From IMG/VR virus record IMGVR_UViG_3300035135_001460, positions 1 to 45,523 of that record: 45,523 nt of DNA. One strand, given 5' to 3'. Positions 9,614 through 45,454 of the stretch are shown in pieces. Source of the DNA: a virus. Taxonomy: Duplodnaviria; Caudoviricetes. Below the pieces are notes generated by a model. The model was given only the letters and a program-made list of their open reading frames with translations, ran no database searches and was not told where the DNA came from. Within the stretch, counting starts at the first letter, position 1; every line of letters starts with the position of its first letter. Position numbers and translations under genes: made by a program.

Positions 9614-12096
9614 TGACGAGAAGATCACCCAGCGACCAAAATCAGACAGGGAAACCAGAACCTAAAACTCCCATGGGAGGAAACCAACAGGTTCCTCAGG
9701 CTGCTGGTAATCCTCGCTTTCGTAATCCTGGGTTGGATCCTAGTCCAGACCCTAAGATTGTTGTAAAGGCAATTAATCCTCCTGTTACTCCCGATCAAGT
9801 TGTTGGGATGGCAGAGATGCCTTCTGCTGCAACTCTGGATCTTCCTAAGATTCAGAATATCAAGATTCCTCCTGTAAAGAATAAGACCATTCAGGGTCAT
9901 CTGAAGGCGATTGAAGCTAAGATGACTGCGACTGAGAAGTTGATGAAGGATGTTGTCAAACTTCAGAAACTGCAGATTATTACGGAGAAAGAATTATTTG
10001 AGCGCAAGAGAGAGTTATATCAAAATACATTTGAAGAATATCTATTAGATAAGACTGTTGATTTTGAAAATCCTGATGATCCAGGTGGGGCAAATTCAAT
10101 TAAAAAGGGTCCTGGTGGATTTGGATTCCCATTTGGTGGTGGTCGTCGCCGCAAAAAAGGTCGCCCACCTGGCGGTGGTAGTGGTGCTGGTGCAGCAGCT
10201 ACTGCTGGTGCTGCTACAACTGCGGCAGAGAGAATGGCGGACGGGCAAGCTTCGGGATTGCCCAATCTAGGTACTGATTATAAGAAACAAGAACAGGACG
10301 CTATTAAAAAAGCTGAAGAGTTCCGAAGGCAGCAAGAACAAAAAACAGGTGTTCCTGCTAAAGGTAAACCTGTACCCGATCAGGATGAAGCTGAAGCAGT
10401 ACCAGAAACTCCTGTGCTTCCTGAACGAGCACCATTGAGGGTTCCGCCTGGACTTCCTATACTTGATCCTAAGTTTGTTCCTCCATTTGATATTCCTGAT
10501 GTTATTACACAAGCAGGAGTACCTCCAACTCCTCCAGTGGTGACAATTCCTGGTTATGATATGAGAGTTAAGACTCATCAGCAGGACTTAGCTGATGCTA
10601 TTGAGACTTACATTGAAAATAATCCTGGCAGTGAATTTGAAGTTAAACTTGGTCGTGGTGCCAGAGTTGATACTGGTCATTTAATCAAGAAAAAAGATGG
10701 AAAGATTTATATTCACGAACCTCTTACTCAAGAGCAATTAGTTTTAATAGGTGCTGGAAATTTCCTTAATTTGAGCGGTTGGATGCCAGTCGTTCCAAGA
10801 AAAACTGGGCGTCGTACTCCAACTGTTCCTGGTACTTCACTCCCTACAGTTACTCCTACAAGAAAAGCACCAACAGCAGCACCAGTTCCTGTACCTGGAA
10901 CAAATACTATTAGTCCTGGTCCTGGTAGAACACAACAACCAGCACAGCCACTATCACCTGTGACTGCTAGGGGTGCTGGTCTTGGTGGTAGTAAACAAAT
11001 CATGAAGCAGAGCAGACCTGTCAATTCTAAGGAAGCTCAAATGCAGGTTAATCGTGATATAATGGAAGCGGAAATGCTGGGGCAGGATCCTAGATTTGTA
11101 AAAATGTTGATGGACCAGGGATTTAATTTCTCTGCTGGTTCAAATGTAATGCCTCGGACTAGGAAAATGTTCCAGTCAAAGAGACAACCTGGAGTATCTT
11201 TTGAAACTAACATGAATCTCTCAGATTTTCTGGGAGCTGGTGGTGGTTTTGGTCCAAGACCATTATCAACAAAAGAAATATTACAGCAGATGAAACAATC
11301 TTCTTTTGATCAATATAGCAGTCCAATTGGTCCTATGCCAAAAGCATCTGGTGGTATTGGTGATATTGATTTGTATAGTAGTAAATCATTGAATTATTTC
11401 AGAGGAATGTCTAGTAAAATTATGCCGATGGCAGATGGTGGATTCATGGGTTGGTTTAACAAGGGCGTTAATACTCGTATTCCAAATGAAGCAAAGGCAA
11501 AATTTGGTAATCCATTCTCATATTTCCAGAAGAATCCAGACCCCACAACACTCTTTGGCGATGATGCTTTGCAGAGAGGTCAGAGTAATAAAAACTTTAA
11601 GGCAGGCAAGAAACCTTCTGTATTTGGAAGACCAGATAGAGCGTTTGGTCTTGATATAGTTGATTCAGTGAAGCAGAGAAGATTGGTGACAGTTCCAGCA
11701 TCTCAAGGTGGTCCTATGTCTGGTCCTACACCAATCACACGGGAAATAATTAAGAGACCAATTCGTGCTTCTGCACATCCACTTATTATGCTCGCAGAAA
11801 TGATTGTCAATGAATTGATTAATCCACAACCAACTGCAGTATATGATCAGGTTACTGGTCCTAATGCATATTATAATGCTCCTGGTTATAAGGGTCCGAT
11901 GCCATCACAGAATCTTGAGAATGCTCAGAGTAGCATGATGTCTGGTAGTGATCCAAAAGTTGAGATTAAACCATTGCCGCCTGATTATATTAAGATTCCT
12001 GCTAAGAAGAAGGCACCTGATTTTGTTGGCACTGAATCACCTGATATTGAGATGAGATCAAGTGTGTTTACTAGATCCTCAACACATATTGATTGA
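9613..12096 (+). CDS. Large Pro/Gly-rich virion protein, tape-measure-like (gp29 position)
   Basis: Directly follows gp26/gp51; coiled-coil segment near aa 95-145, ASGG/MADGG motifs, otherwise low complexity. Confidence 0.55.
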   Translation: MTRRSPSDQNQTGKPEPKTPMGGNQQVPQAAGNPRFRNPGLDPSPDPKIVVKAINPPVTPDQVVGMAEMPSAATLDLPKIQNIKIPPVKNKTIQGHLKAIEAKMTATEKLMKDVVKLQKLQIITEKELFERKRELYQNTFEEYLLDKTVDFENPDDPGGANSIKKGPGGFGFPFGGGRRRKKGRPPGGGSGAGAAATAGAATTAAERMADGQASGLPNLGTDYKKQEQDAIKKAEEFRRQQEQKTGVPAKGKPVPDQDEAEAVPETPVLPERAPLRVPPGLPILDPKFVPPFDIPDVITQAGVPPTPPVVTIPGYDMRVKTHQQDLADAIETYIENNPGSEFEVKLGRGARVDTGHLIKKKDGKIYIHEPLTQEQLVLIGAGNFLNLSGWMPVVPRKTGRRTPTVPGTSLPTVTPTRKAPTAAPVPVPGTNTISPGPGRTQQPAQPLSPVTARGAGLGGSKQIMKQSRPVNSKEAQMQVNRDIMEAEMLGQDPRFVKMLMDQGFNFSAGSNVMPRTRKMFQSKRQPGVSFETNMNLSDFLGAGGGFGPRPLSTKEILQQMKQSSFDQYSSPIGPMPKASGGIGDIDLYSSKSLNYFRGMSSKIMPMADGGFMGWFNKGVNTRIPNEAKAKFGNPFSYFQKNPDPTTLFGDDALQRGQSNKNFKAGKKPSVFGRPDRAFGLDIVDSVKQRRLVTVPASQGGPMSGPTPITREIIKRPIRASAHPLIMLAEMIVNELINPQPTAVYDQVTGPNAYYNAPGYKGPMPSQNLENAQSSMMSGSDPKVEIKPLPPDYIKIPAKKKAPDFVGTESPDIEMRSSVFTRSSTHID

Positions 12097-14072
12097 TGTT
12101 AAAAGCAAAGACTAAAATGATAGAGAGAGATTCGGAGGCATTTGCTTCCGAAGTCTTTGCTGTAGCTGATAATATTACACCGATTGCTATTGCTAGTGTT
12201 GATAGTATTCTTAAATTAGAAGATGTAGAAGATCTGCAGGTTGTTCCCGAGCAGAAAGTAAAGCAACTAATTGTAGAGAATAAGTCTACCAACCCGATGA
12301 GTAAATTCTTCATTAGGTTGGGAACTTATCTTGATTCAATGGAGAACTTCCTTTCTGAAATGCATTCAAATTATATGAAAGGAATTGAGCAGAAGAGATC
12401 TTTGCATGGACTTGAGGATAGTGATCAAAAGCAAAAAACTGCACGCGCTAAAAGAACTGCTAGAAAACTTGCTGTTAATAGAGCTATTGATTCTATTTTT
12501 GGTGGCACAAAGTCTGATTTATATGATATGCCTATTGGACTTATGGCAATGAACTTCCTTACTAGGGGATTTGAGGATAGAATTCAGAGACAGGCAGAAT
12601 CTATTGTAATTGTTCCATATCAACCAGTTGCTGGTCAACTTAAAGCGAAGGGTGAGACAGAAGATGAATTTGTTAGTGGTTATAAATTAACTTCTGCATA
12701 TGGTCATCGTTGGGGTAAAATGCACGGCGGTGTTGACATTGGTGTTCCTGTGGGAACAATGTTTGCACTTAAAAAGAAATCTATCGTCAAATTTGCTGGT
12801 TATCAGAATCCCGATGATCCATCAGTGGGATATGGATTACTTGTGGATTCTTGGGTGCCATCTTTAAATAAAATGTTTAGATTTGCTCACCTCAGTGAAG
12901 TTGGGGTGAAGGAAGGTGATACAGTTGATGCTGGTAAAGTATTAGGTAAGTCTGGCAATACTGGATTATCTACTGGTCCTCACTTTCACATTGAGGTTCA
13001 CCCTGAAGTCAGACCTAATTATGGCGGAGAGAATCCTATGCCATATATTGATTATGTGATTGCTGGTGAGGAGATGATGGAGCAGAAATCTGAGGGATCT
13101 ATTGAAAGAATTGGTAGAGTCATGGTCGGTGAAGCTGGTCCTGAATTTGTAATTCCAATGAGTCAGATGCCAATCTTTGCTCAACTTATGATGGAGGAGA
13201 AGATTAAATCTTTAAACCCTTTATATAATCCTCCTTTTGGTAGATTTGATAATCTTGGTGTTGAGAGACAAGCTGGATTTACTAATACTATGATGGCAGC
13301 GGGCGGTATTACTATCAATAGTAATCATAAAACTGCTGCTAAAAGACTTACAAGTTATTTTCCTACAGCAGAACCCATTCACATTGCTGCTGCTATGGGT
13401 AACTTTGAAACCGAAGCACCTGGACTAAAACCTAATACTTATCAGATGGGCAATGGTCCTGGTCGTGGTATTGCTCAGTGGGAAATAATCCATCCTGGAA
13501 ATCCTACTGGAAGATGGAACACTGCAGAGGAGAAGTATGGTCCTAATGTTATTAACAGTTTAGAAGATCAGTTGAGGTTCGTGAAGTGGGAGATGGATAC
13601 AGGGCACCAGATACCTGATGGTGAGGGTAGCACTAGACCTAACTTACCATATGGTAATGCTGCTAAGAGAGTATGGTTGGGGACTGAGAATATTGAAAAG
13701 GCAACTAAAGAATTTATGGAAGGTTATGAATCACCTTCTGTACCACATTGGACTCAGAGGTTGGCAAATGCTATGTTCTTCCTTGAACAAATGCCTAACA
13801 TGTTGGGTAAACCTAAAACTCCTCCTGTTCCTCCTACTGTGACTAATGATGAAGTTCAAAGACAGATTGAAAAGAATCTTCGTGATCGTAATACGATGAG
13901 TCCTGAAGATTTCTTTGGAACTAAACCAGTGTTCTCTTCTAGTTTAAATAGTATACCAGGCAATGAGCAAATGCAAATTGCTAATGAGACACAAGAGCAA
14001 TTCTCATTTGACAATGTTAAAGGTGAGATCGTCGCACTCTATCAACCAACAGTCTATTATACTGAGTCATGA
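12096..14072 (+). CDS. Tape-measure-like virion protein with M23 peptidase and phage tail lysozyme-like domains
   Basis: M23: HGGVDIG..FAHLS..V..GD.V..G..G.SGNTG.STGPHFHIEV; VGEAGPEFVIP motif; tail lysozyme-like: AAAMGNF..E..GRGIAQW..LEDQL.FV..EM..F..YE.P..R.ANA. Confidence 0.8.
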   Translation: MLKAKTKMIERDSEAFASEVFAVADNITPIAIASVDSILKLEDVEDLQVVPEQKVKQLIVENKSTNPMSKFFIRLGTYLDSMENFLSEMHSNYMKGIEQKRSLHGLEDSDQKQKTARAKRTARKLAVNRAIDSIFGGTKSDLYDMPIGLMAMNFLTRGFEDRIQRQAESIVIVPYQPVAGQLKAKGETEDEFVSGYKLTSAYGHRWGKMHGGVDIGVPVGTMFALKKKSIVKFAGYQNPDDPSVGYGLLVDSWVPSLNKMFRFAHLSEVGVKEGDTVDAGKVLGKSGNTGLSTGPHFHIEVHPEVRPNYGGENPMPYIDYVIAGEEMMEQKSEGSIERIGRVMVGEAGPEFVIPMSQMPIFAQLMMEEKIKSLNPLYNPPFGRFDNLGVERQAGFTNTMMAAGGITINSNHKTAAKRLTSYFPTAEPIHIAAAMGNFETEAPGLKPNTYQMGNGPGRGIAQWEIIHPGNPTGRWNTAEEKYGPNVINSLEDQLRFVKWEMDTGHQIPDGEGSTRPNLPYGNAAKRVWLGTENIEKATKEFMEGYESPSVPHWTQRLANAMFFLEQMPNMLGKPKTPPVPPTVTNDEVQRQIEKNLRDRNTMSPEDFFGTKPVFSSSLNSIPGNEQMQIANETQEQFSFDNVKGEIVALYQPTVYYTES

Positions 14073-17030: not shown

Positions 17031-20000
17031 TGAACACAGATTTTTCACAAAATTTATGGTATCAAGGCAGAGAACTTGCCAAAGCGGGCACCACCATGCT
17101 CGGATGGATCACCTCTGTTAAGTCAGAAGGTGGTGGCGGAATTTATCAGGTAAGATGTCCTGCAATTCATGGATATTGTGACATTAATGAACAGAATTGT
17201 GAGGAAGATGTAGTAGTAAAGGATGCACTTCCTTGGATTCCTACTATTGCAACAGAACATGGCAACAGTGCCATTGGTGCAAATAATCACACACGTCAGT
17301 ATGCTAAGGGACAATTTGTTATTGTCAAATTTGATGGACCTAACTACAGCAGTCCAACAATCATATCTGCACACAAGGCAAAGCATCCAGTATTAGGAAC
17401 ACAAGAGAATTTTGATCAAAGCAGACCTTATGTTATTGCTTCTCTTGTAGAACCCCTAGAGAAAAATTTCAGCACTGATCAGGGTGACAATGGTTGCTTC
17501 AGTGTTGTAACAAAAGCATCTGAAATTCCTGAGAACGGTGAGAGTGCGAAAAAAGCTAGTAAGTGTGGTGACAGTGGATCTTTGTCATCTGATGTTGGTG
17601 CATTTATTGGTGACTTCTTGAAGATTGTTCAGAACACCGATGGTCAGATTGGATCAAAGTTTGTTAACTCTATTACTGGAGAATTATTTGAGATAACAGG
17701 GTACATTCAAAAGTACATGGCTGCTATCTCTGGTGTTATTCGCAGTGGTATTGGTTGGGTAAAAGCAATTATCACTAAGTATGCTAGAAAGGCTATTGAT
17801 CAATTAGTTAAATTGATCATGACACCGATCAAGGGTATTACCACAACAATTAATGATGTCATTGAGCAAATTCTCAATATGGTGTTCTGTAGTTTTGGTA
17901 ATATTGAATCATTACTCTCCAACATGATTGAAGATCTCCTGAATACTCTTGTAGATTCGGCAGTCAGTAGTGTATTTGGTTGTTTAGATACTCTAGTTGA
18001 TGGTATTCTTAACGAGATCATGGGAGAAGTCCTGGGTCTAGTTGAAAGTATTATGGGTGTCATTGAATCTATTGCTGGCATCATTGGTGGTTTTGGTGAT
18101 CTGCTGGGTGAAGCAATCAACGCAGTATTGGACTTCTTAGGTATTAGTTGTGGCGGTGCAGGTGATTGTGCCACAGATGCATCTAATGCTCTTACTGCCA
18201 CATTTAATAATCCTGGTGAGTTTGGACTCACTGATGGCATCAAATCATCTCTGCAAGGTGGTTTAGATGCTGTTAATAATGTGAGTAGTGATATTGATAA
18301 ATCTACTGCGGAGGCGAATGCAGAAGCAGCAGAATATGCTAAAGGTGTTGACCTAGGAACAGCAAATGTTCCTGGTGTGTCTACAGATAACCAAGCATTG
18401 AGGAATGCATTTACTACAGCAAATAACATGGCTGCTAGTGCTGTCTCTAATGTATTTGATTTCTGTAATAATCTTAGTGCTGGAAATGATGGATCTACAG
18501 GAGCTTCTACCACACCAACTAATCCTGGTGATGATGGACCATATACACCTAGCACAACTTACGCAGTAGTTATTGGTAAGGAGGAGGATAAGTATGATGC
18601 AGAATATAGTATGTTCACTATAAAGGATTCTGCTAAGAGCGGTGACACTCAACAGATTAAGATCAGAAGAGATAATACGCATGAAGATGGTGTAATTATT
18701 TTTGTTGTCCACCTTTCAAATATTGATACTGCTAGAGTTGTCGGTATTACTGAGGGTCTTACTGCTGGTGGTGATCTTCAGAAAGGCACAGTTCTTGATG
18801 ATAAGCAATATGCGAAGATGCCTAAGAAGAGTAAGTCTACTCAAGAGTTTCCTAAGAAGAATCGTGTTGTTACATCTGAAAAAGTATTCTTCCCTGCAGG
18901 TACAAATGAAGTTGTTGTAGATGTCCCTACGCTTCTAAATGAACCACCTAAAGATGATGAGGGATTCCAGAATGCAGAAGAAGTAACATATACTGCTTCA
19001 ATTTATAGAGCTTCTGATGATTTAGATAAGAATAATTATCCGTATAAGAATTTACCACATACCTCGGCACTTTTAAACAGTGCTAAGTTGAAGATTACGT
19101 TTGCAAAAATTCCTGGTAGTGATCCAACTACTACTGATATTTACTTGCCACCTGAAATCCTTACAAACAAAGTTAATTACTCTGTTAACAATGTAAGTGT
19201 TGCTGCTGGTCAATCAGCACAGTTCCAAGTTGTCCGTAGTCCAGTTGTTGATTATACAACAAAAGTAAAGTGTACTACAGGAACAGATCCTGGTGCTCAA
19301 TCTCCTGCTGTTGATGGAACTCATTATACTGGTGGTAGCGCCATTCTTACATTTGGACCTGGGGAAAATAATAAAATTTTCTCTGTTCCAACTATAGAAG
19401 TTGCAACTCTCACTAATACAACTAAATCTTTTGATGTAACATTTGTAGATAATGAACTTCCTCTTAATGTAGCATCAAATCTTGGTGGTAGTGGTACTAC
19501 TGCTGGTACTCAGATTGGCGCTGGTATTACTAGAATAGGTGTTATTAACTACAGTCCTACATTTACACCATCTCCAATCTGTAAGGCAGAGATTCTCATA
19601 ACTTCTGAGAACGCACCATGTATTGTTCAAGAAGAAGATGTGCCTCTTAATATTGGTGTGATTGTTAAAACTAGTGTTCCTGGTTATATTTTCAGCTATG
19701 AGTGGCAGAGATCTCTTGATCCAGATGCAACCAGCTGGACTACAGTAACTAATGGTGTTAGAAATGAAACAATTACTGAAAAGGTAACTGAGTTCGGACC
19801 CTCTGATATTACAATTATTGATGGTAATGGTCAGAGTGTTACTCTGGATGCATGGGAGACGACAGATGTGAATCAGTCTGTCAGTATTACTTATACTGGT
19901 GCCACTACAAATACTCTGTCAGTTCAACAACCATCATATCTTATTCTTGATCAAGAATATTATCGTTGTGTAATTACTGCAACACCAGTAACTCCTTCTG

Positions 20001-23221: not shown

Positions 23222-23482
23222 ATGTACAAAGTAACCGCTAAACATGTCATCACCGATGAAGAAGGGATTGTAAAGGCATACTTTCTCAATGGTATTCCTT
23301 TTACGTTTGACTCTTTGGATGGTGAAACTCAGAATGATGAAGCAGTTTTAGCAGAAGTGATAAATTCTCCTACAGTTTCCATTGAACTAATTCATCAGAA
23401 GTCTGCATATTTGTTGGAGGAAGGTTTACACCCAATGTTGAGCGGTATAGAATTAGATCCCGAAAGCACTTTACCCGAATGA
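23222..23482 (+). CDS. Hypothetical cyanophage protein
   Basis: ORF tightly packed after speD. Confidence 0.7.
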   Translation: MYKVTAKHVITDEEGIVKAYFLNGIPFTFDSLDGETQNDEAVLAEVINSPTVSIELIHQKSAYLLEEGLHPMLSGIELDPESTLPE

Positions 23483-23649
23483 AAATCAATCTCTGGTACT
23501 CACAACCCACAAGACAGTGGCGATGGACTCTCACAGACGAAAAAAATGACATGCAGCAAGAATCTGGTCAACAACCATTCTTGCGTGACGCTATGGATGA
23601 TGTCGCCAACACCGTAGAATACATGCTTGACACAATGCAAAATGAGTGA
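23479..23649 (+). CDS. Small hypothetical protein (56 aa, not in ORF track)
   Basis: Hand translation MKINLWYSQPTRQWRWTLTDEKNDMQQESGQQPFLRDAMDDVANTVEYMLDTMQNE*; ATGA overlap with upstream stop. Confidence 0.75.
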   Translation: MKINLWYSQPTRQWRWTLTDEKNDMQQESGQQPFLRDAMDDVANTVEYMLDTMQNE

Positions 23650-23655
23650 TACAAT
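23627..23655 (+). promoter_or_regulatory. Strong sigma70-type promoter
   Basis: TTGACA (23627) N17 TACAAT (23650) with extended TG. Confidence 0.8.
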
Positions 23656-23659
23656 TTAA

Positions 23660-23713
23660 TTTCCGTGTGAAGGAAGTGTTAGAGATCAGGTACTTTGTGC
23701 CTGATCTTTTTTT
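23660..23713 (+). ncRNA. Putative ~50-nt small RNA (promoter, small hairpin, terminator; no ORF)
   Basis: TTCC-GTGTGAA-GGAA hairpin then terminator stem, directly after the promoter. Confidence 0.55.
23681..23713 (+). terminator. Rho-independent terminator
   Basis: AGAGATCAGGTAC-TTT-GTGCCTGATCTTT stem plus T-run. Confidence 0.85.
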
Positions 23714-23716
23714 ATA

Positions 23717-23724
23717 GATAAATA
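23717..23724 (+). promoter_or_regulatory. Late promoter for tail fibre gene
   Basis: GATAAATA 33 bp upstream of ATG 23758, just after the terminator. Confidence 0.7.
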
Positions 23725-23757: not shown

Positions 23758-26700
23758 ATGGCATTAACCAGATTAACTAACTTGATTGCTTCCAGAACTG
23801 GAAGGATGTTGTATGTAAACCCTGACGATTTTAATGCGTCAGATTTGATTTCTAATAACGGTAACTCACCCACAAGACCGTTTAAGAGTATTCAACGTGC
23901 GCTACTTGAAGTAGCAAGATTCTCTTATATTCAGGGTCAGAATAACGATAAGTACGACCAGTTTACTATCAATCTTTCTCCTGGTGAGTATATTATTGAT
24001 AACCGTCCTGGTAAGGCAAACACTGCTGAAGTTCCTGAACTGTCTGATCAGTCAAACTTTGACATCACCGATCCTGCAAACGATCTGGTTAAGTTTAACT
24101 CCACTGAGGGTGGATTAGTTGTACCTAGAGGTACTTCTCTCGTTGGTATGGACTTGAGAAAGACTAGAGTCCGACCACGATATGTTCCTAACCCTGCTGA
24201 TAGTTCTATTGACAGAACATCAATCTTTAAGGTAACTGGTGCATGTTATTTCTGGCAGTTCTCTCTGTTTGATGCTCTTCCTACATCTGATGTTTCTGGT
24301 AATGGCGGTGTTTATAATGAACCCACCAGTAACACGATTGTAAACTCTAACTATTCACACCATAAGGTCACTTGCTTTACATATGCCGACCAGAGTGATC
24401 TAGATCTTTTCTATGCGAAAGCAGCGAGAGCATTTGAATCCATTCCTACAACTCCTGGTGAGTTGGAGTCAAGAACTCAAGAGAATAGAATCGTTGGTCC
24501 TCTGCAACAGGCAGGACAAAAAGATATTCTATCGGTAAATGTTTCTGGTTCTCTCGTAACTGTTGTAACTGATGGTCCTCACGAAGTATTTGAGGGTCAG
24601 CAGATCACCATTGAGGACGTAGTTGGTGCCTATTCTGCATTGAATGGTACATATTATGTTACCGATGTTGCTAACGACAGTCAACTTACAGTAACACTTA
24701 ACGGTCTTGCTCCTGGTAATGTTCCTAGTGTTGATCTTGCCAACGCCATTGTTAAGGCTGAGATTGATACTGTTGACTCATCCTCACCATACATCTTTAA
24801 CTGTTCACTGAGATCTACTTATGGTCTTTGTGGTCTGTGGGCAGATGGTAGTAAGGTCAGTGGATTTAAGTCCATGGTTGTCGCCCAGTTCACGGGTGTT
24901 TCACTTCAGAAGGATGACCGTGCTTTTGTTAAGTTCACTGAAACTACTTCACCTAACCCTAGTTTTGTTCTAGAGGGTGGTGCATCTGATGCCATTGCTC
25001 TACACCAGGATTCTACTAGAGGTGTATATTATCGTGGTGATGCTACTACTGGTTGGAGACACTATCACATCCGTGTGTCTAACAACTCATTCATTCAGTC
25101 AGTTTCGGTGTTCGCCGTTGGTTACGCTGAGCAGCACTTAATTGAGTCTGGTGGTGATTATTCTGTTACAAACTCTAACTCTAACTTTGGTACACAAGCT
25201 CTGATTGCTGATGGTTTCAGACCAGACGCATTTACACTTGATAAGAAGGGTAAGTTTACTCATATTGTTCCTCCTCAAGCACTGACAACACTTGAGTCTA
25301 ACATTCAGTATTATCCTTTGGATGTTCAGAAGAGTAAAGCAGGATTATCTGCTGATTCTACTGGAACTAAATTGTTCATGTTTGAGCAGAGAGATCCCTC
25401 TGAAACTCCAGTATTTGATATCAACAATTATAAGTTAGGTGGTAAACTTAACGATAAAGTATTTGCTAAACTTACTGATCCTGCAACAGGTAGATTCTCA
25501 GAGTTCTCTGCGGAAATTTCTCCTAGTGGTATTGAAGAGCATCAGATCACCAACGTAAATGTTGGAACTGACACCTTTACAACAGCATCTACCAATGATT
25601 TTGAGACTGCTACACCAATTAGAATCTATAGTAGCACAGGTTACTTACCTCTCGGCATGGAGTCTAACAGACTTTACTATGCTATTAAGATCAATAATAC
25701 ATCATTTAAGATTGCACCTTCAGAAGAAGATGCAAGAGCAGGCGCTGGTGGAGATCCAAATAGTATTGTAAATATCAGATCTATTATTCCACTCGGTGCT
25801 GTTCTGACGGTAAAAGCATTTGTATCTGATACAAATCCTGAACTTCCAAGATTTAATGTTTCTGTAAACGCAAGTAATGAAACATTTTCAACAGGTACAT
25901 TCCCTCATGGTTTCACGACTGGTGACAAAGTATTCTTCCGTCGCAGAGTAATTGCTGATGTAGTTCAAACAGGACAACTTCCTCAAATCCAGCAGAGTGG
26001 AACTACACAAGATATTAGTTTGACGACTGAGTATTTTGTTAAAGTTGTAGATTCTTATACATTTAAGATTGCTGATACTTTATCAAATGCAAACAATGAT
26101 ATTCCTATTCCTGTTGATGCCCCTGGCGATGTTGCCCAGGTAGTTGTTTATAGAAACATCCAGAAATCTCCCCTGAGATATGATCCAACACAGGAAAACT
26201 GGTATATCTCAGTAGCATCTAACGTACAAAATACAATTCACCCTGTTCTCACCAGCAGCAGTTCTGGAAACATTTATGCTAATACTCTGCTGACTAACAC
26301 CGAGAACGTTTATTTCAAGAGAATTAGCGATAACAGACAACTCGCTGATAGAACATATCGTATGAGATATGTTATTCCTAAGACTGAACTTAACGCCAGA
26401 CCTCCTCTGATTGGTTATGTTGTTCAGAGAAGAACTGACTCTACTAATGTCATCATTCCTTATGATACTAACAGTGCGACAGGACAAACTTCTGAATTTG
26501 ATAGAATTTATTTCATCTATAGATCAGATACTATTCTGAAACACATTCCTGGTGAGCAGGATGGTGTTTATTATCTGACTATTCTTCTTGCTGACGTTGC
26601 TCCTAAGGGTTCTCAGTTTAACTCTGCAACAAATACATTTGATTTCCTGAAGTATTCTCAGGATGTGAGTAAGATTTATCCTGACCTTGATAAGGATAAC

Positions 26701-29421
26701 CCATCTCAGGATCCTCCAGCAGCAGTAACAGTTGCTGATAACTTAGTTCATGGTGATGTTTATCAGGATGATGATAGATCCTCTATTACTAAAGAAGCAA
26801 TCGCTACATTTATCGCTGATGCTGGATTTACTCCTAACTTAAATGCTCTTACTGGTAAGGCAACATCTGGTCAGGAAAATAGACTTATTTCATTCAATGC
26901 AAATAGTCCTGAAATTGAAGTAGAACTGAGAAGAACTTCACAGGTTCGTGCTGGTAACCAGACATTTGAATACACTGGATTTGGTTCGGGTAATTATTCA
27001 ACTGGTTTCCCATCTAAGCAGGAAATTGTTCTGAGTGATAAGGAAGTTCTTTATTCTCAGTCACAACGTCGCCGTGCTGGTGTTGTATTCTACTCTGGTC
27101 TGAATGCATATGGTGATCTGTATGTTGGTAATCAGAAGATTAACGCTATTACTGGTGAAGTTGAGATTATTGATAAACCAATTCTGAGAGTTGCAGGTTC
27201 TGCTGCTGTTGTTAATGAAGAATATGTTCCTTATGTTCAGGGAACTAAGAATGTCAACATTGAAGGTAACATTGCTACCAGTGGTGGAGAAGGTGGTGTA
27301 CTTGCTAACGCATTTAATAATGAAAGTAAGTTCTTTGAGGGTGTTAGTATTAGCACCAAGGACAGCACTAACAGAGCATTGATTTCACATGATCTTGTCT
27401 ACAGACAGAAACAATCATCTGTAGAAGGATCTTTCAATAACTATAATGCCAAGCAAACTTCCCTCAGTCCTAATAACCTGAGACCTACTCCTGGTGTTGA
27501 ATCTGTGTTCCCAGGTGATCATTTATATAAACCAAGAATTAACCGTGCTACCAGACATGAAGGTTACATTTATGTCGGTGGCGATCCATCTGAAACTGCT
27601 AATCCAATTAATGGAGATTATAGACAGGTTGGTCTGATTGGCACAGGACATCTTACATCTATTGAAGAATCTTATACTGATGCTCCTAATCAATCTGGAA
27701 CTACACCAGAACCATACATTGTAACGGGTAAGTTTGGTATTAACCAGACAGCACCTACTCAATCACTTCATGTTGGTACTGGCGATGTTCTGTTTGATCA
27801 TAACTTGGTAGTCACTGAAGATGTGACAATTAATGGTGGTGATCTTAATTCAAATGCATCAACATTTAATTATACCACTACATCAGACACAGTTAATTTT
27901 GCTACTAGTGCAACAACAATGAATGTTGCTGCTTCCAATGCTCCTCTGGGTGCTGGAACACAAGGTGGTAACTCTCTTGCAATTATTGCTAGTGATATTA
28001 CTCGCATCGTAGGTGATGTTGAGATGAATGGTAAGTTTGATTCTGGTACTTCTGGCACTAGAACTGCTACATTTACCACTACAGCAGATGTAACTAACTT
28101 CTTGACAATTCCTGGAACTGTCAACTTTAGTTCTGCAACGATGAATGCGTTCACTGGTGCTACTGTTATCAACATTGGTAATAGCACTGGTACAACAACT
28201 GTCAATCATAACCTTACAGTTACTGGTGATCTGAGAGTCAATGGTACTACAACCTATGTAAATAGCACGATTGTTGATCTTGATGATCCTATCATCTCTC
28301 TTGGTGGTACTACTGATGCTGGTGATGCTCCTGCTACTGCTGTTAATAAAGATAGAGGTTTAGAACTCAAGTATTACAGTAATGGTGCTGCCGCATCTGG
28401 ATTTATGGGTCTGGATGTTAGCGATATGAAGTATAAACTTTATACTGCTGCTACTGGATTTGCCACTAACGAAGTAACAGGAACTCTTGCAACTCTTGAA
28501 GCAGATACATTTGAGGCAGATACTGCGTTCAGTTCACCTAGATTTGAATTGGAGGGATCATTAAGCTATACTGCACAGGGTAATGAGTTTAACTCTACTA
28601 TGCAGAGTGCAATCATGAAGCACGCTCTTCCTAGTGGTGCAGTTATTATGTGGCATGGTCAAGGTGGTATTCCTAATGGATATGCTGAATGTAATGGTGG
28701 TACATATACCAATCGTTCAGGAGTTTCACAACCAACACCAGACTTTAGAGACAGATTTATTGTAGGACAAGGTAGTCAATATAGTAGTTCTATTGGTGGT
28801 TCTTATTCCAAGACCACTGGTGATGCTACCAACGCGAACACACTTGCAGTTGATTTGAGTCAATTTAGTATTGATAATCATTCTTTGGCTGTTGGACAAA
28901 TTCCACAACACAGACATGGAATTAGTCATGGTCACAGCGGTGTAACCATTAACTCTTTCAACGGCAACAATGGAAACATCAATGTCAATGTAAGTGGTGG
29001 TACTCATAATCACGAAATCAATGATGATGGTCACGCGCACTTTATTTGTGGTGGTGGTACTTCTGATGATGGCGGTGGTTGTGTTCCTGGTTCAAACAAC
29101 AGTGGTGATCATGGTGCTATTCAGCAAGCAAATGCTAATGTGAACGTTAAACTGGGTCAGGGTGGTCACAGTCATAATGTGGTTATTACGAGACAGAACA
29201 TTGCTCAGTCTATTGACACTGGTACTGGTGTAGTTGATTCTGGTACAGTGACTCCAGATGCTATTTCTGGTGAAGGTGTCAACCACGGATTGAAAAGTCC
29301 TGCTGATGGTCATAATCACAATACCTCTGGTAGTCTTCCACTTAATAACAGATCACATACTCATACTATCAATGATATTGCGCCACCATGGCACTCCACT
29401 ACATTTATTATTAAGATGTGA
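23758..29421 (+). CDS. Long tail fibre/structural protein with C-terminal tail-collar domain and His-x-His needle
   Basis: Cyanophage fibre-type N-terminus (L.RL.N..LYVNP.DF.A.D..N.GNS..RPFKSIQRA); collar LPSGAVIMW.G..IP.GY..CNG..TPDFRDRFIVG; seven HxH motifs; ends PP..TFIIKM. Confidence 0.85.
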   Translation: MALTRLTNLIASRTGRMLYVNPDDFNASDLISNNGNSPTRPFKSIQRALLEVARFSYIQGQNNDKYDQFTINLSPGEYIIDNRPGKANTAEVPELSDQSNFDITDPANDLVKFNSTEGGLVVPRGTSLVGMDLRKTRVRPRYVPNPADSSIDRTSIFKVTGACYFWQFSLFDALPTSDVSGNGGVYNEPTSNTIVNSNYSHHKVTCFTYADQSDLDLFYAKAARAFESIPTTPGELESRTQENRIVGPLQQAGQKDILSVNVSGSLVTVVTDGPHEVFEGQQITIEDVVGAYSALNGTYYVTDVANDSQLTVTLNGLAPGNVPSVDLANAIVKAEIDTVDSSSPYIFNCSLRSTYGLCGLWADGSKVSGFKSMVVAQFTGVSLQKDDRAFVKFTETTSPNPSFVLEGGASDAIALHQDSTRGVYYRGDATTGWRHYHIRVSNNSFIQSVSVFAVGYAEQHLIESGGDYSVTNSNSNFGTQALIADGFRPDAFTLDKKGKFTHIVPPQALTTLESNIQYYPLDVQKSKAGLSADSTGTKLFMFEQRDPSETPVFDINNYKLGGKLNDKVFAKLTDPATGRFSEFSAEISPSGIEEHQITNVNVGTDTFTTASTNDFETATPIRIYSSTGYLPLGMESNRLYYAIKINNTSFKIAPSEEDARAGAGGDPNSIVNIRSIIPLGAVLTVKAFVSDTNPELPRFNVSVNASNETFSTGTFPHGFTTGDKVFFRRRVIADVVQTGQLPQIQQSGTTQDISLTTEYFVKVVDSYTFKIADTLSNANNDIPIPVDAPGDVAQVVVYRNIQKSPLRYDPTQENWYISVASNVQNTIHPVLTSSSSGNIYANTLLTNTENVYFKRISDNRQLADRTYRMRYVIPKTELNARPPLIGYVVQRRTDSTNVIIPYDTNSATGQTSEFDRIYFIYRSDTILKHIPGEQDGVYYLTILLADVAPKGSQFNSATNTFDFLKYSQDVSKIYPDLDKDNPSQDPPAAVTVADNLVHGDVYQDDDRSSITKEAIATFIADAGFTPNLNALTGKATSGQENRLISFNANSPEIEVELRRTSQVRAGNQTFEYTGFGSGNYSTGFPSKQEIVLSDKEVLYSQSQRRRAGVVFYSGLNAYGDLYVGNQKINAITGEVEIIDKPILRVAGSAAVVNEEYVPYVQGTKNVNIEGNIATSGGEGGVLANAFNNESKFFEGVSISTKDSTNRALISHDLVYRQKQSSVEGSFNNYNAKQTSLSPNNLRPTPGVESVFPGDHLYKPRINRATRHEGYIYVGGDPSETANPINGDYRQVGLIGTGHLTSIEESYTDAPNQSGTTPEPYIVTGKFGINQTAPTQSLHVGTGDVLFDHNLVVTEDVTINGGDLNSNASTFNYTTTSDTVNFATSATTMNVAASNAPLGAGTQGGNSLAIIASDITRIVGDVEMNGKFDSGTSGTRTATFTTTADVTNFLTIPGTVNFSSATMNAFTGATVINIGNSTGTTTVNHNLTVTGDLRVNGTTTYVNSTIVDLDDPIISLGGTTDAGDAPATAVNKDRGLELKYYSNGAAASGFMGLDVSDMKYKLYTAATGFATNEVTGTLATLEADTFEADTAFSSPRFELEGSLSYTAQGNEFNSTMQSAIMKHALPSGAVIMWHGQGGIPNGYAECNGGTYTNRSGVSQPTPDFRDRFIVGQGSQYSSSIGGSYSKTTGDATNANTLAVDLSQFSIDNHSLAVGQIPQHRHGISHGHSGVTINSFNGNNGNINVNVSGGTHNHEINDDGHAHFICGGGTSDDGGGCVPGSNNSGDHGAIQQANANVNVKLGQGGHSHNVVITRQNIAQSIDTGTGVVDSGTVTPDAISGEGVNHGLKSPADGHNHNTSGSLPLNNRSHTHTINDIAPPWHSTTFIIKM

Positions 29422-45427: not shown

Positions 45428-45454
45428 TCAGAAGTACACCACACAGGACACACC

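Follow-up and report, generated by a model that had tools for sequence, protein, structure and literature searches.

A conserved small RNA unit of cyanophages is most likely antisense to host tRNA-Val(CAC) and one of at least three such types

Introduction

The window analysed here, a stretch of 45,523 nt, is a 45.5-kb fragment of a T4-like cyanophage and is 24% complete. In front of its tail fibre gene, a promoter-like sequence opens a unit of about 50 nt that ends in a terminator. The question raised by this locus is what RNA such a unit would produce and to which partner that RNA would bind. The initial annotation proposed that the unit encodes a decoy for the cyanobacterial small RNA Yfr1. 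Yfr1 carries the motif ACUCCUCACAC (excerpts of PMC2190773 and PMC2518516), and host Yfr2 is described as the partner of Yfr1 and Yfr10 that relieves repression by Yfr1 (excerpts of PMC6778093). In this study, we found that the unit is real and conserved but was misassigned. As judged from sequence, the unit most likely yields an RNA that is antisense to host tRNA-Val(CAC), and it belongs to a set of three or more types of this kind.

Among the 20 proteins of the window that were scanned, PHROG matches included gp32, PstS, tail and baseplate genes, S-adenosylmethionine decarboxylase, a phrog_529 fibre and a CobS-like protein. The window carries genes for tRNA-Ser(TGA) and tRNA-Leu(TAA), and its close matches are all Synechococcus phages. 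A 659-aa protein of the structural region (12093-14072) contains a peptidase/endolysin-like domain at residues ~190-320.

Results

All features of the locus lie on the plus strand. The predicted sigma70-type promoter (23627..23655) has the form TTGACA-N17-TACAAT, with its boxes at 23627-23632 and 23650-23655 and an extended TG at 23647-23648, as had been described. It scored 11/12 and was the best of 28 promoter-like sites between 18 and 30 kb. These 28 sites compare with 35.9 in shuffled sequences, which is chance level. A lone promoter-like site is no commoner than chance; the case for the unit is made by its conservation. The antisense head (23661..23678, with an invariant core at 23665-23677) is followed by an intrinsic terminator (23681..23713) with a stem of 13 pairs (23681-23709) and a T run up to 23713, so the strong terminator at the end of the ~50-nt unit was confirmed. 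The hairpin is kept across the family and its sequence is variable. The claim that the fibre gene (phrog_529, 23758..29421) has its own promoter also held, since ATAAATA, a late-promoter-like sequence, lies 3' of the terminator at 23718..23724 and recurs in this position in most family members.

Two reading frames touch the unit. An upstream 56-aa ORF of unassigned function (phrog_2818, 23479..23649) contains the -35 box and, through its stop codon, provides the TG of the extended -10. It was rejected as a part of the unit, because among 51 distinct regions downstream of its relatives the exact motif was present in only 4 and a variant in 1. The unit itself had been called free of ORFs. The stand-alone layout of about 50 nt holds; a 23-codon ORF (23646-23717) does cross it, and was treated as chance because flanks and length are free to vary in relatives.

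The predicted fold of the unit consists of a small 5' hairpin and the terminator, with a z of about -5. The 5' hairpin, UUCC-GUGUGAA-GGAA (23661..23675), is a mirror image of the tRNA arm. It is predicted in the window with pair probabilities of 0.72-0.99, as the initial annotation had noted, but TTCC is present in only 9/81 promoter-linked copies and the hairpin is not conserved. Mimicry of tRNA-His by its GUG loop was ruled out for this reason.

The search for the unit in other cyanophages returned a family with a promoter, a head and a hairpin. The 15-mer TCCGTGTGAAGGAAG occurs in about 430 IMG/VR stretches and the 14-mer core in about 830, both being estimates for which 120 loci each were fetched. 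In 109 distinct core contexts, a hairpin with a U run was found in 51 and a -10-like or late TAAATA box in 81, mostly 6-10 nt upstream of the core. The slot of the promoter is filled in some relatives by a -10 box and in others by a late TAAATA box or a tRNA gene, and the hairpin sequences differ freely. The units lie after the major capsid gene region (Syn9, S-MbCM100), before the fibre gene (S-SM2, the window), 3' of tRNA-Thr or tRNA-Asn genes and at the start of phage tRNA clusters. Among 50,697 phage genomes, 89 records matched, and all were Synechococcus phages or cyanophages; carriers of the Val unit include Syn9, S-SM2, S-RIM8 and Syn30. A scan with TGATATAAT..GTGTG was abandoned as mostly noise (AAGGAAG next in 5/120, 1 variant).

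Conservation was also examined with an anchor blind to the motif, which combined the capsid gene end with TATAAT. This gave 109 loci, 62 of them distinct, and removal of six other genes and one incomplete locus left 55. The 13-nt core was exact in 49 of these 55 loci, four had variants that still pair with tRNA-Val(CAC), one was headless and one carried a head against tRNA-Pro(CGG). The core is conserved while the terminator sequence, promoter type and location vary. The proposal of a stand-alone small RNA gene, likely pairing through its 5' end, is supported by this conservation across cyanophages.

At the gathering threshold, no Rfam family matched the unit, and the seven matches at E up to 10 were all below the cut-off. 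Among 24 RNA runs listed, none reached half of the sequence words; four were examined as assembled contigs, which give neither ends nor strand.

Several copies were seen in other forms. Seven leader-type copies (L494, L515, L544, L554, L560, L570 and L536) have a longer conserved hairpin before tRNA clusters that is common to several contigs. One variant head (L157:770-800) has the loop complement of Val(CAC), while its stem part carries a C like that of Pro(CGG) heads; it still pairs best with tRNA-Val(CAC) and is possibly an intermediate form. The exact core in Sf-FR1 and all one-mismatch matches, including those in Prochlorococcus phages, lacked the architecture of the unit and were dropped. 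In the Prochlorococcus phage P-TIM68 (L736, 57372), a one-mismatch core follows a -10-like box without a terminator and is possibly a decayed copy or a chance match.

We then asked what the conserved head resembles. In the first scan, six matches resembled reversed tRNA genes, five of which were identified by ARAGORN as tRNA-Val(CAC). The head at 23661..23678 complements host tRNA-Val(CAC) exactly from about position 25 to 42, a stretch that starts at the D-stem junction, passes through the anticodon loop and ends in the 3' strand of the stem. The complement grows to 20 nt (23660-23679) with two G-U pairs. The chance of an 18-nt match is about 5e-7, or 6e-6 when the complementarity of the stem to itself is taken into account. 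In host genome G037, with its 41 distinct tRNAs, this was the sole long match of 23661-23678 to an anticodon arm. When the host tRNA was compared with phages by BLAST, T-arm matches dominated.

The target is widespread among possible hosts. Its arm has the sequence CACTTCC-TTCACAC-GGAAG in 5/5 genomes first tested, and the tRNA-Val(CAC) pattern was present in 224/301 host-family genomes. Among the 150 matches listed, 147 had the identical target arm; 75 further matches lie outside this list. Only 4 of the 77 genomes without the pattern are 2.0 Mb or larger, and we infer that the smaller ones are Prochlorococcus. The anticodons CAC (Val), CGG (Pro), CCC (Gly), CGC (Ala) and some Leu anticodons are reported to vary among these cyanobacteria, and high-light Prochlorococcus to avoid mostly GC-rich anticodons (excerpts of PMC3152331).

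True Val units were found in 7/14 Synechococcus phages and 0/9 Prochlorococcus phages. Without three phages picked by the motif, the counts are 4/11 and 0/9 (p=0.09), with kinship among the phages making the counts interdependent. Among the Prochlorococcus phages, two of nine are from MIT9303, a host that possibly has tRNA-Val(CAC).

Predicted energies, which leave aside tRNA tertiary structure and modifications, favoured the same partner. The duplex with tRNA-Val(CAC) was predicted at -34.8 kcal/mol, compared with -24.7 for tRNA-Val(GAC), the next best tRNA, and -15 to -17 for 16 host sequences with the Yfr1 motif. The gain on co-folding was -18.5 with tRNA-Val(CAC) and -7.5 to -13.3 with comparison RNAs. 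The host Val arm is nearly invariant, and two phage variants fit the variant arm of one host genome (G013) only ~1 kcal/mol better.

The flank of the core was also informative. At the free position 5' of the core, C was present in 38/51 units and G in 8/51, compared with C in 7/28 background matches; the next free position was C in 32/51 units. The tRNA predicts C in this flank and Yfr1 mostly G, while the RNA's own hairpin likewise predicts C. When G-U pairs were allowed the enrichment was modest (60 and 56/81 versus 13 and 17/28). The arrangement of the unit is that expected of an anti-tRNA design, with a promoter, a 13-20 nt complement of an anticodon arm within ~6-10 nt, and then a hairpin. 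These results suggest that a tRNA is very probably the partner of the phage RNA.

The match to Yfr1 has a simple source. The Yfr1 motif equals the arm of tRNA-Val(CAC) minus two U, so that a complement of this tRNA is automatically a two-bulge complement of Yfr1. The pairing that had been drawn between the phage head and Yfr1 was reproduced at about -17 kcal/mol. As the selected target, Yfr1 was not supported: both A residues that are bulged against Yfr1 are invariant in the phage family, missing from host Yfr2, and perfectly paired in host tRNA-Val(CAC).

We compared the phage RNA with Yfr2/Cyano-1 (RF01701) directly. Both are short RNAs with an unpaired, purine-rich 5' head starting with GUGUG (excerpts of PMC6778093, PMC2518516 and PMC2662882), and both can be drawn as paired to the Yfr1 motif. 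Yfr2 heads carry a Yfr1-complementary motif of the GUGAGGAG type, read as GTGAGGAG or GTGAGGGG, whereas the phage head has the two extra A, which give it perfect complementarity to the tRNA and poor complementarity to Yfr1. The central GAAAC-A/G-AGG loop on a long stem was present in 9/9 host Yfr2 copies and absent from 23661-23713. The RF01701 model found the hosts' own copies in 5/5 genomes and gave no match to the phage RNA at the gathering threshold or at E up to 10.

A sponge of host Yfr1/Yfr10 that mimics host Yfr2, as a main or a side function, is nevertheless suggested by the resemblance of the phage head to the 5' motif of Yfr2, which itself provides the precedent of relief from Yfr1 (excerpts of PMC6778093). 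The Yfr1 pairing of the phage head is level with that of the weakest three or four Yfr2 heads; of the nine, four lie at about -16 to -22 kcal/mol, but five bind Yfr1 more tightly, at -23 to -35 without the two bulges. A search of viral contigs for a perfect Yfr1 complement after TATAAT promoters, the only ones covered, returned 68 stretches (53 distinct) and no family; five were flagged by the hairpin test, with about one convincing terminator. The phage unit was present in 0/9 Prochlorococcus phages although the Yfr1 motif occurs in 41/41 host-family genomes. Sister heads described below pair with Yfr1 at only about -14. We consider a sponge function very unlikely, and the sponge reading is probably wrong. 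The phage RNA may bind Yfr1 weakly as a secondary partner. Two further observations were made in these searches. In a single contig (L629), TATAAT is accompanied by a terminator hairpin and a head that resembles a perfect Yfr1 complement. Pairing energies of -19 to -25 kcal/mol with tRNA-Val(CAC) were obtained for some Yfr2 heads of host loci L403-L471 and L412-L441.

The strongest evidence for a tRNA-directed function came from sister units against tRNA-Pro(CGG) and tRNA-Gly(CCC), neither of whose heads resembles the complement of Yfr1. In L998/L1119, a head against tRNA-Pro(CGG) lies between the capsid-gene promoter and the terminator, in the slot otherwise held by the anti-Val head. The L998 head forms 13 contiguous pairs with the arm of tRNA-Pro(CGG) and 7 pairs with its D loop (-40.3 kcal/mol), compared with -13.9 for Yfr1. 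Viral contigs contained three such units (L998, L1124, L1140) among 83 distinct contexts, and metagenomes one (L1255) among 101 distinct contexts, the remainder of which were unrelated. All four lie directly 3' of the capsid gene stop codon, and two copies also pair with the D loop. The Pro(CGG) arm was found in 3/5 host genomes and was absent from two of 1.8 Mb.

Eleven phage genomes and the window were scanned at 18,484 promoter-like sites against all 41 host arms. Five distinct hits exceeded the control maximum, and all were to Val(CAC) or Gly(CCC); the reversed-arm control is not independent for Val(CAC), whose arm contains a mirror repeat. The unit of S-SM2 was missed because its -10 variant is outside the promoter list.

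Heads against tRNA-Gly(CCC) occur in two forms. Stand-alone units with a -10 box and terminator were found in ACG-2014f (L855, 103188) and in IMG/VR loci L888 and L917. L888 follows a gene end that by eye resembles pstS. The other form is the 5' leader of a gp3-like tail gene, as in S-RSM4 (L852), S-CAM1 (L853), Sf-FR1 (L850) and, with one mismatch, S-RIM44 (L857). In IMG/VR, 41/111 distinct hits were promoter-linked by a simple pattern test; most are gp3-like leaders and two are stand-alone. An exact Gly match in S-RIM12 was dropped because it lies inside a reading frame. The Gly arm is identical in 53/61 host genomes, small flanking changes aside, and tRNA-Gly(CCC) is present in many host genomes of 1.7-1.9 Mb.

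Among 14 Synechococcus phages (W01-W14), seven had the Val unit, five the Gly type, none both, and two (S-CAM7 and S-B68) neither. A Val or Gly element was present in 9/11 Synechococcus phages not selected by the motif and in 0/9 Prochlorococcus phages (p=3e-4, a value that exaggerates the contrast since the phages are related).

The leader forms raise the question of whether the element acts in cis. A host tRNA could bind the 5' end of the phage transcript and thereby control or protect downstream genes, namely phage tRNA clusters, the gp3-like tail gene or the fibre gene, signalling a GC-rich host. Many copies head tRNA clusters without a U run, and most anti-Gly(CCC) copies (~35 IMG/VR loci and the leaders of S-RSM4, S-CAM1, Sf-FR1 and S-RIM44) span the ATG of the gp3-like gene together with its ribosome-binding site. 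In S-RIM44, the complementary ACAT is retained though the start codon has moved, for which a plain ribosome-binding site is not a sufficient explanation. In the window, by contrast, the duplex stops before the terminator stem, which stays intact in the co-fold, the fibre gene has its own late promoter, and stand-alone versions exist for all three targets. For the elements as a whole a cis function is quite unlikely; for the Gly leaders it is a live rival.

The RNA might instead work through a protein, as a guide or scaffold with which a phage or host nuclease or a modifying enzyme cuts or alters the anticodon, or as a shield against a host anticodon nuclease. The core covers the whole loop and the 5' strand of the stem, some leader-type copies (L494, L544, L554) have a longer conserved hairpin, and host anticodon nucleases are known as a defence (excerpts of PMC4810235). 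However, no protein neighbour is conserved across the capsid-gene, fibre-gene and tRNA-cluster sites, the hairpin sequence is free to vary, and a tRNA that is covered as a shield would be unable to decode. We regard this explanation as unlikely.

A site in the DNA, either an operator or a recombination core copied from a tRNA gene before an ordinary terminator, would need no functional RNA. The TTCC-N7-GGAA inverted repeat lies immediately 3' of the promoter, and anticodon loops are integrase crossover sites in other elements. Against this, copies often lack the left arm yet retain the asymmetric core, no tRNA 3' half lies downstream, and every promoter-linked copy is oriented antisense to the tRNA, with substitutions that preserve G-U pairing. 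ARAGORN called no tRNA at the head in the window. Since the match ends at about tRNA position 42 and the 3' half is not copied, a tRNA-derived attachment site was rejected, and a DNA-level function in general is highly improbable.

Discussion

Our main reading is that these antisense RNAs open and silence host C34 tRNAs and so tilt translation towards the AT-rich phage. We give it a probability of roughly 0.6, resting on sequence comparison and predicted pairing. If a tRNA is the partner, silencing is a likely outcome. In this mechanism, host sigma70 polymerase would transcribe an RNA of ~50 nt that starts at ~23661-23663 and ends at the U run, and the terminator hairpin would shield its 3' end. 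The GUGUGAA loop of the RNA would contact the UUCACAC loop of the tRNA. The RNA would then invade the anticodon stem and displace its 3' strand, giving a duplex of 18-20 bp. A tRNA-Val(CAC) held in this duplex would be neither charged nor used for decoding, and might be degraded. Host mRNAs rich in GUG would be translated more slowly, and AT-rich phage mRNAs, aided by phage U34 tRNAs, would be less affected.

Codon usage agrees with this proposal. The Val, Pro and Gly targets are all C34 tRNAs that read G-ending codons. In sampled host ORFs, 54% of Val codons are GTG, compared with 8-12% in the window, Syn9, S-SM2 and S-RSM4, and the share of GGG is 19% in the host and 3-5% in the same four phages. 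On balance, we favour the view that the targets are C34 tRNAs found in GC-rich Synechococcus and hardly needed by an AT-rich phage, although GTG is still 12% of Val codons in the window phage. Syn9 and S-SM2 encode tRNA-Val(TAC). Host genome G037 also has tRNA-Val(TAC), which is expected to decode GUG through wobble pairing; the effect may for this reason be mild. In Synechococcus WH5701, tRNA-Val(TAC) is reported as undetectable (excerpts of PMC11726456).

The sister units suggest, with somewhat better than even odds, a class of re-targetable cassettes made of a promoter, a swappable head of 13-20 nt and a terminator, directed against tRNA-Val(CAC), tRNA-Pro(CGG) or tRNA-Gly(CCC). With such cassettes, the phage would, as we are inclined to think, trim the host tRNA pool by RNA alone, besides adding tRNA genes.

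Several known systems are comparable. After infection with T2 or T4, a host tRNA-Leu that reads CUG is cleaved. Tuning of the tRNA pool by phages shares a predicted logic with our proposal, a shift from G/C-ending host codons to phage codons, but its known routes are added tRNAs or nucleases, whereas here an antisense RNA would act on the anticodon arm. The T-box riboswitch presents a codon to the tRNA anticodon upstream of a terminator, and its antiterminator pairs with the tRNA 3' end. The phage RNA likewise shows a GUG codon to the anticodon upstream of a terminator. Unlike a T-box, it would pair over 13-20 contiguous bases and open the arm, with no antiterminator and no pairing to the tRNA 3' end. 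It has no Rfam T-box match, spans only ~20 nt before the terminator, and leaves the terminator intact in the co-fold. The tRNA genes of cyanomyoviruses are reported to favour AT-rich codons (excerpts of PMC3152331).

Among phage small RNAs, AgvB and AsxR of EHEC prophages pair with host non-coding RNA, as proposed here, but they titrate regulatory sRNAs and come from prophages (excerpts of PMC12197685). The unit described here belongs to a lytic phage, and its best partner is the anticodon arm of a tRNA. A sponge would show conserved pairing to an sRNA seed; conservation here tracks the tRNA arm instead, and the slot switches to the complement of another tRNA. CfrI of S-PM2 is also a non-coding RNA of a lytic T4-like cyanophage, but it is a cis antisense RNA at psbA (excerpts of PMC12197685), whereas the unit described here is encoded in trans and matches a host tRNA.

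The literature searched, mainly open-access articles, contained neither an antisense RNA of a phage against a host tRNA nor a phage sponge of Yfr1. In excerpts of a 2025 review of phage small RNAs, the letters "tRNA" occur once, within a program name (PMC12197685). Excerpts of PMC7368042, PMC6191309 and PMC2662882 contain no phage Yfr2. S-CREM1 carries the motif at 45436, and the RNAs listed in excerpts of its paper are only those of abiF, wcaG, manA and glnA (PMC9964418).

If the proposed mechanism is true, a virus would attack host tRNAs by antisense RNA, a route that we did not find described in the literature searched. The natural swap of heads at one locus hints that single tRNA isoacceptors of bacteria could be silenced with a simple tool of this kind. 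The proposal is testable in model pairs, with Syn9, S-SM2, S-RIM8 and Syn30 for the Val unit and S-RSM4, S-CAM1 and ACG-2014f for the Gly type. For the question of why cyanomyoviruses have tRNA genes, and of how AT-rich phages translate well in GC-rich Synechococcus, it would supply a second half. It may also matter for host range and host shut-off in these abundant marine primary producers.
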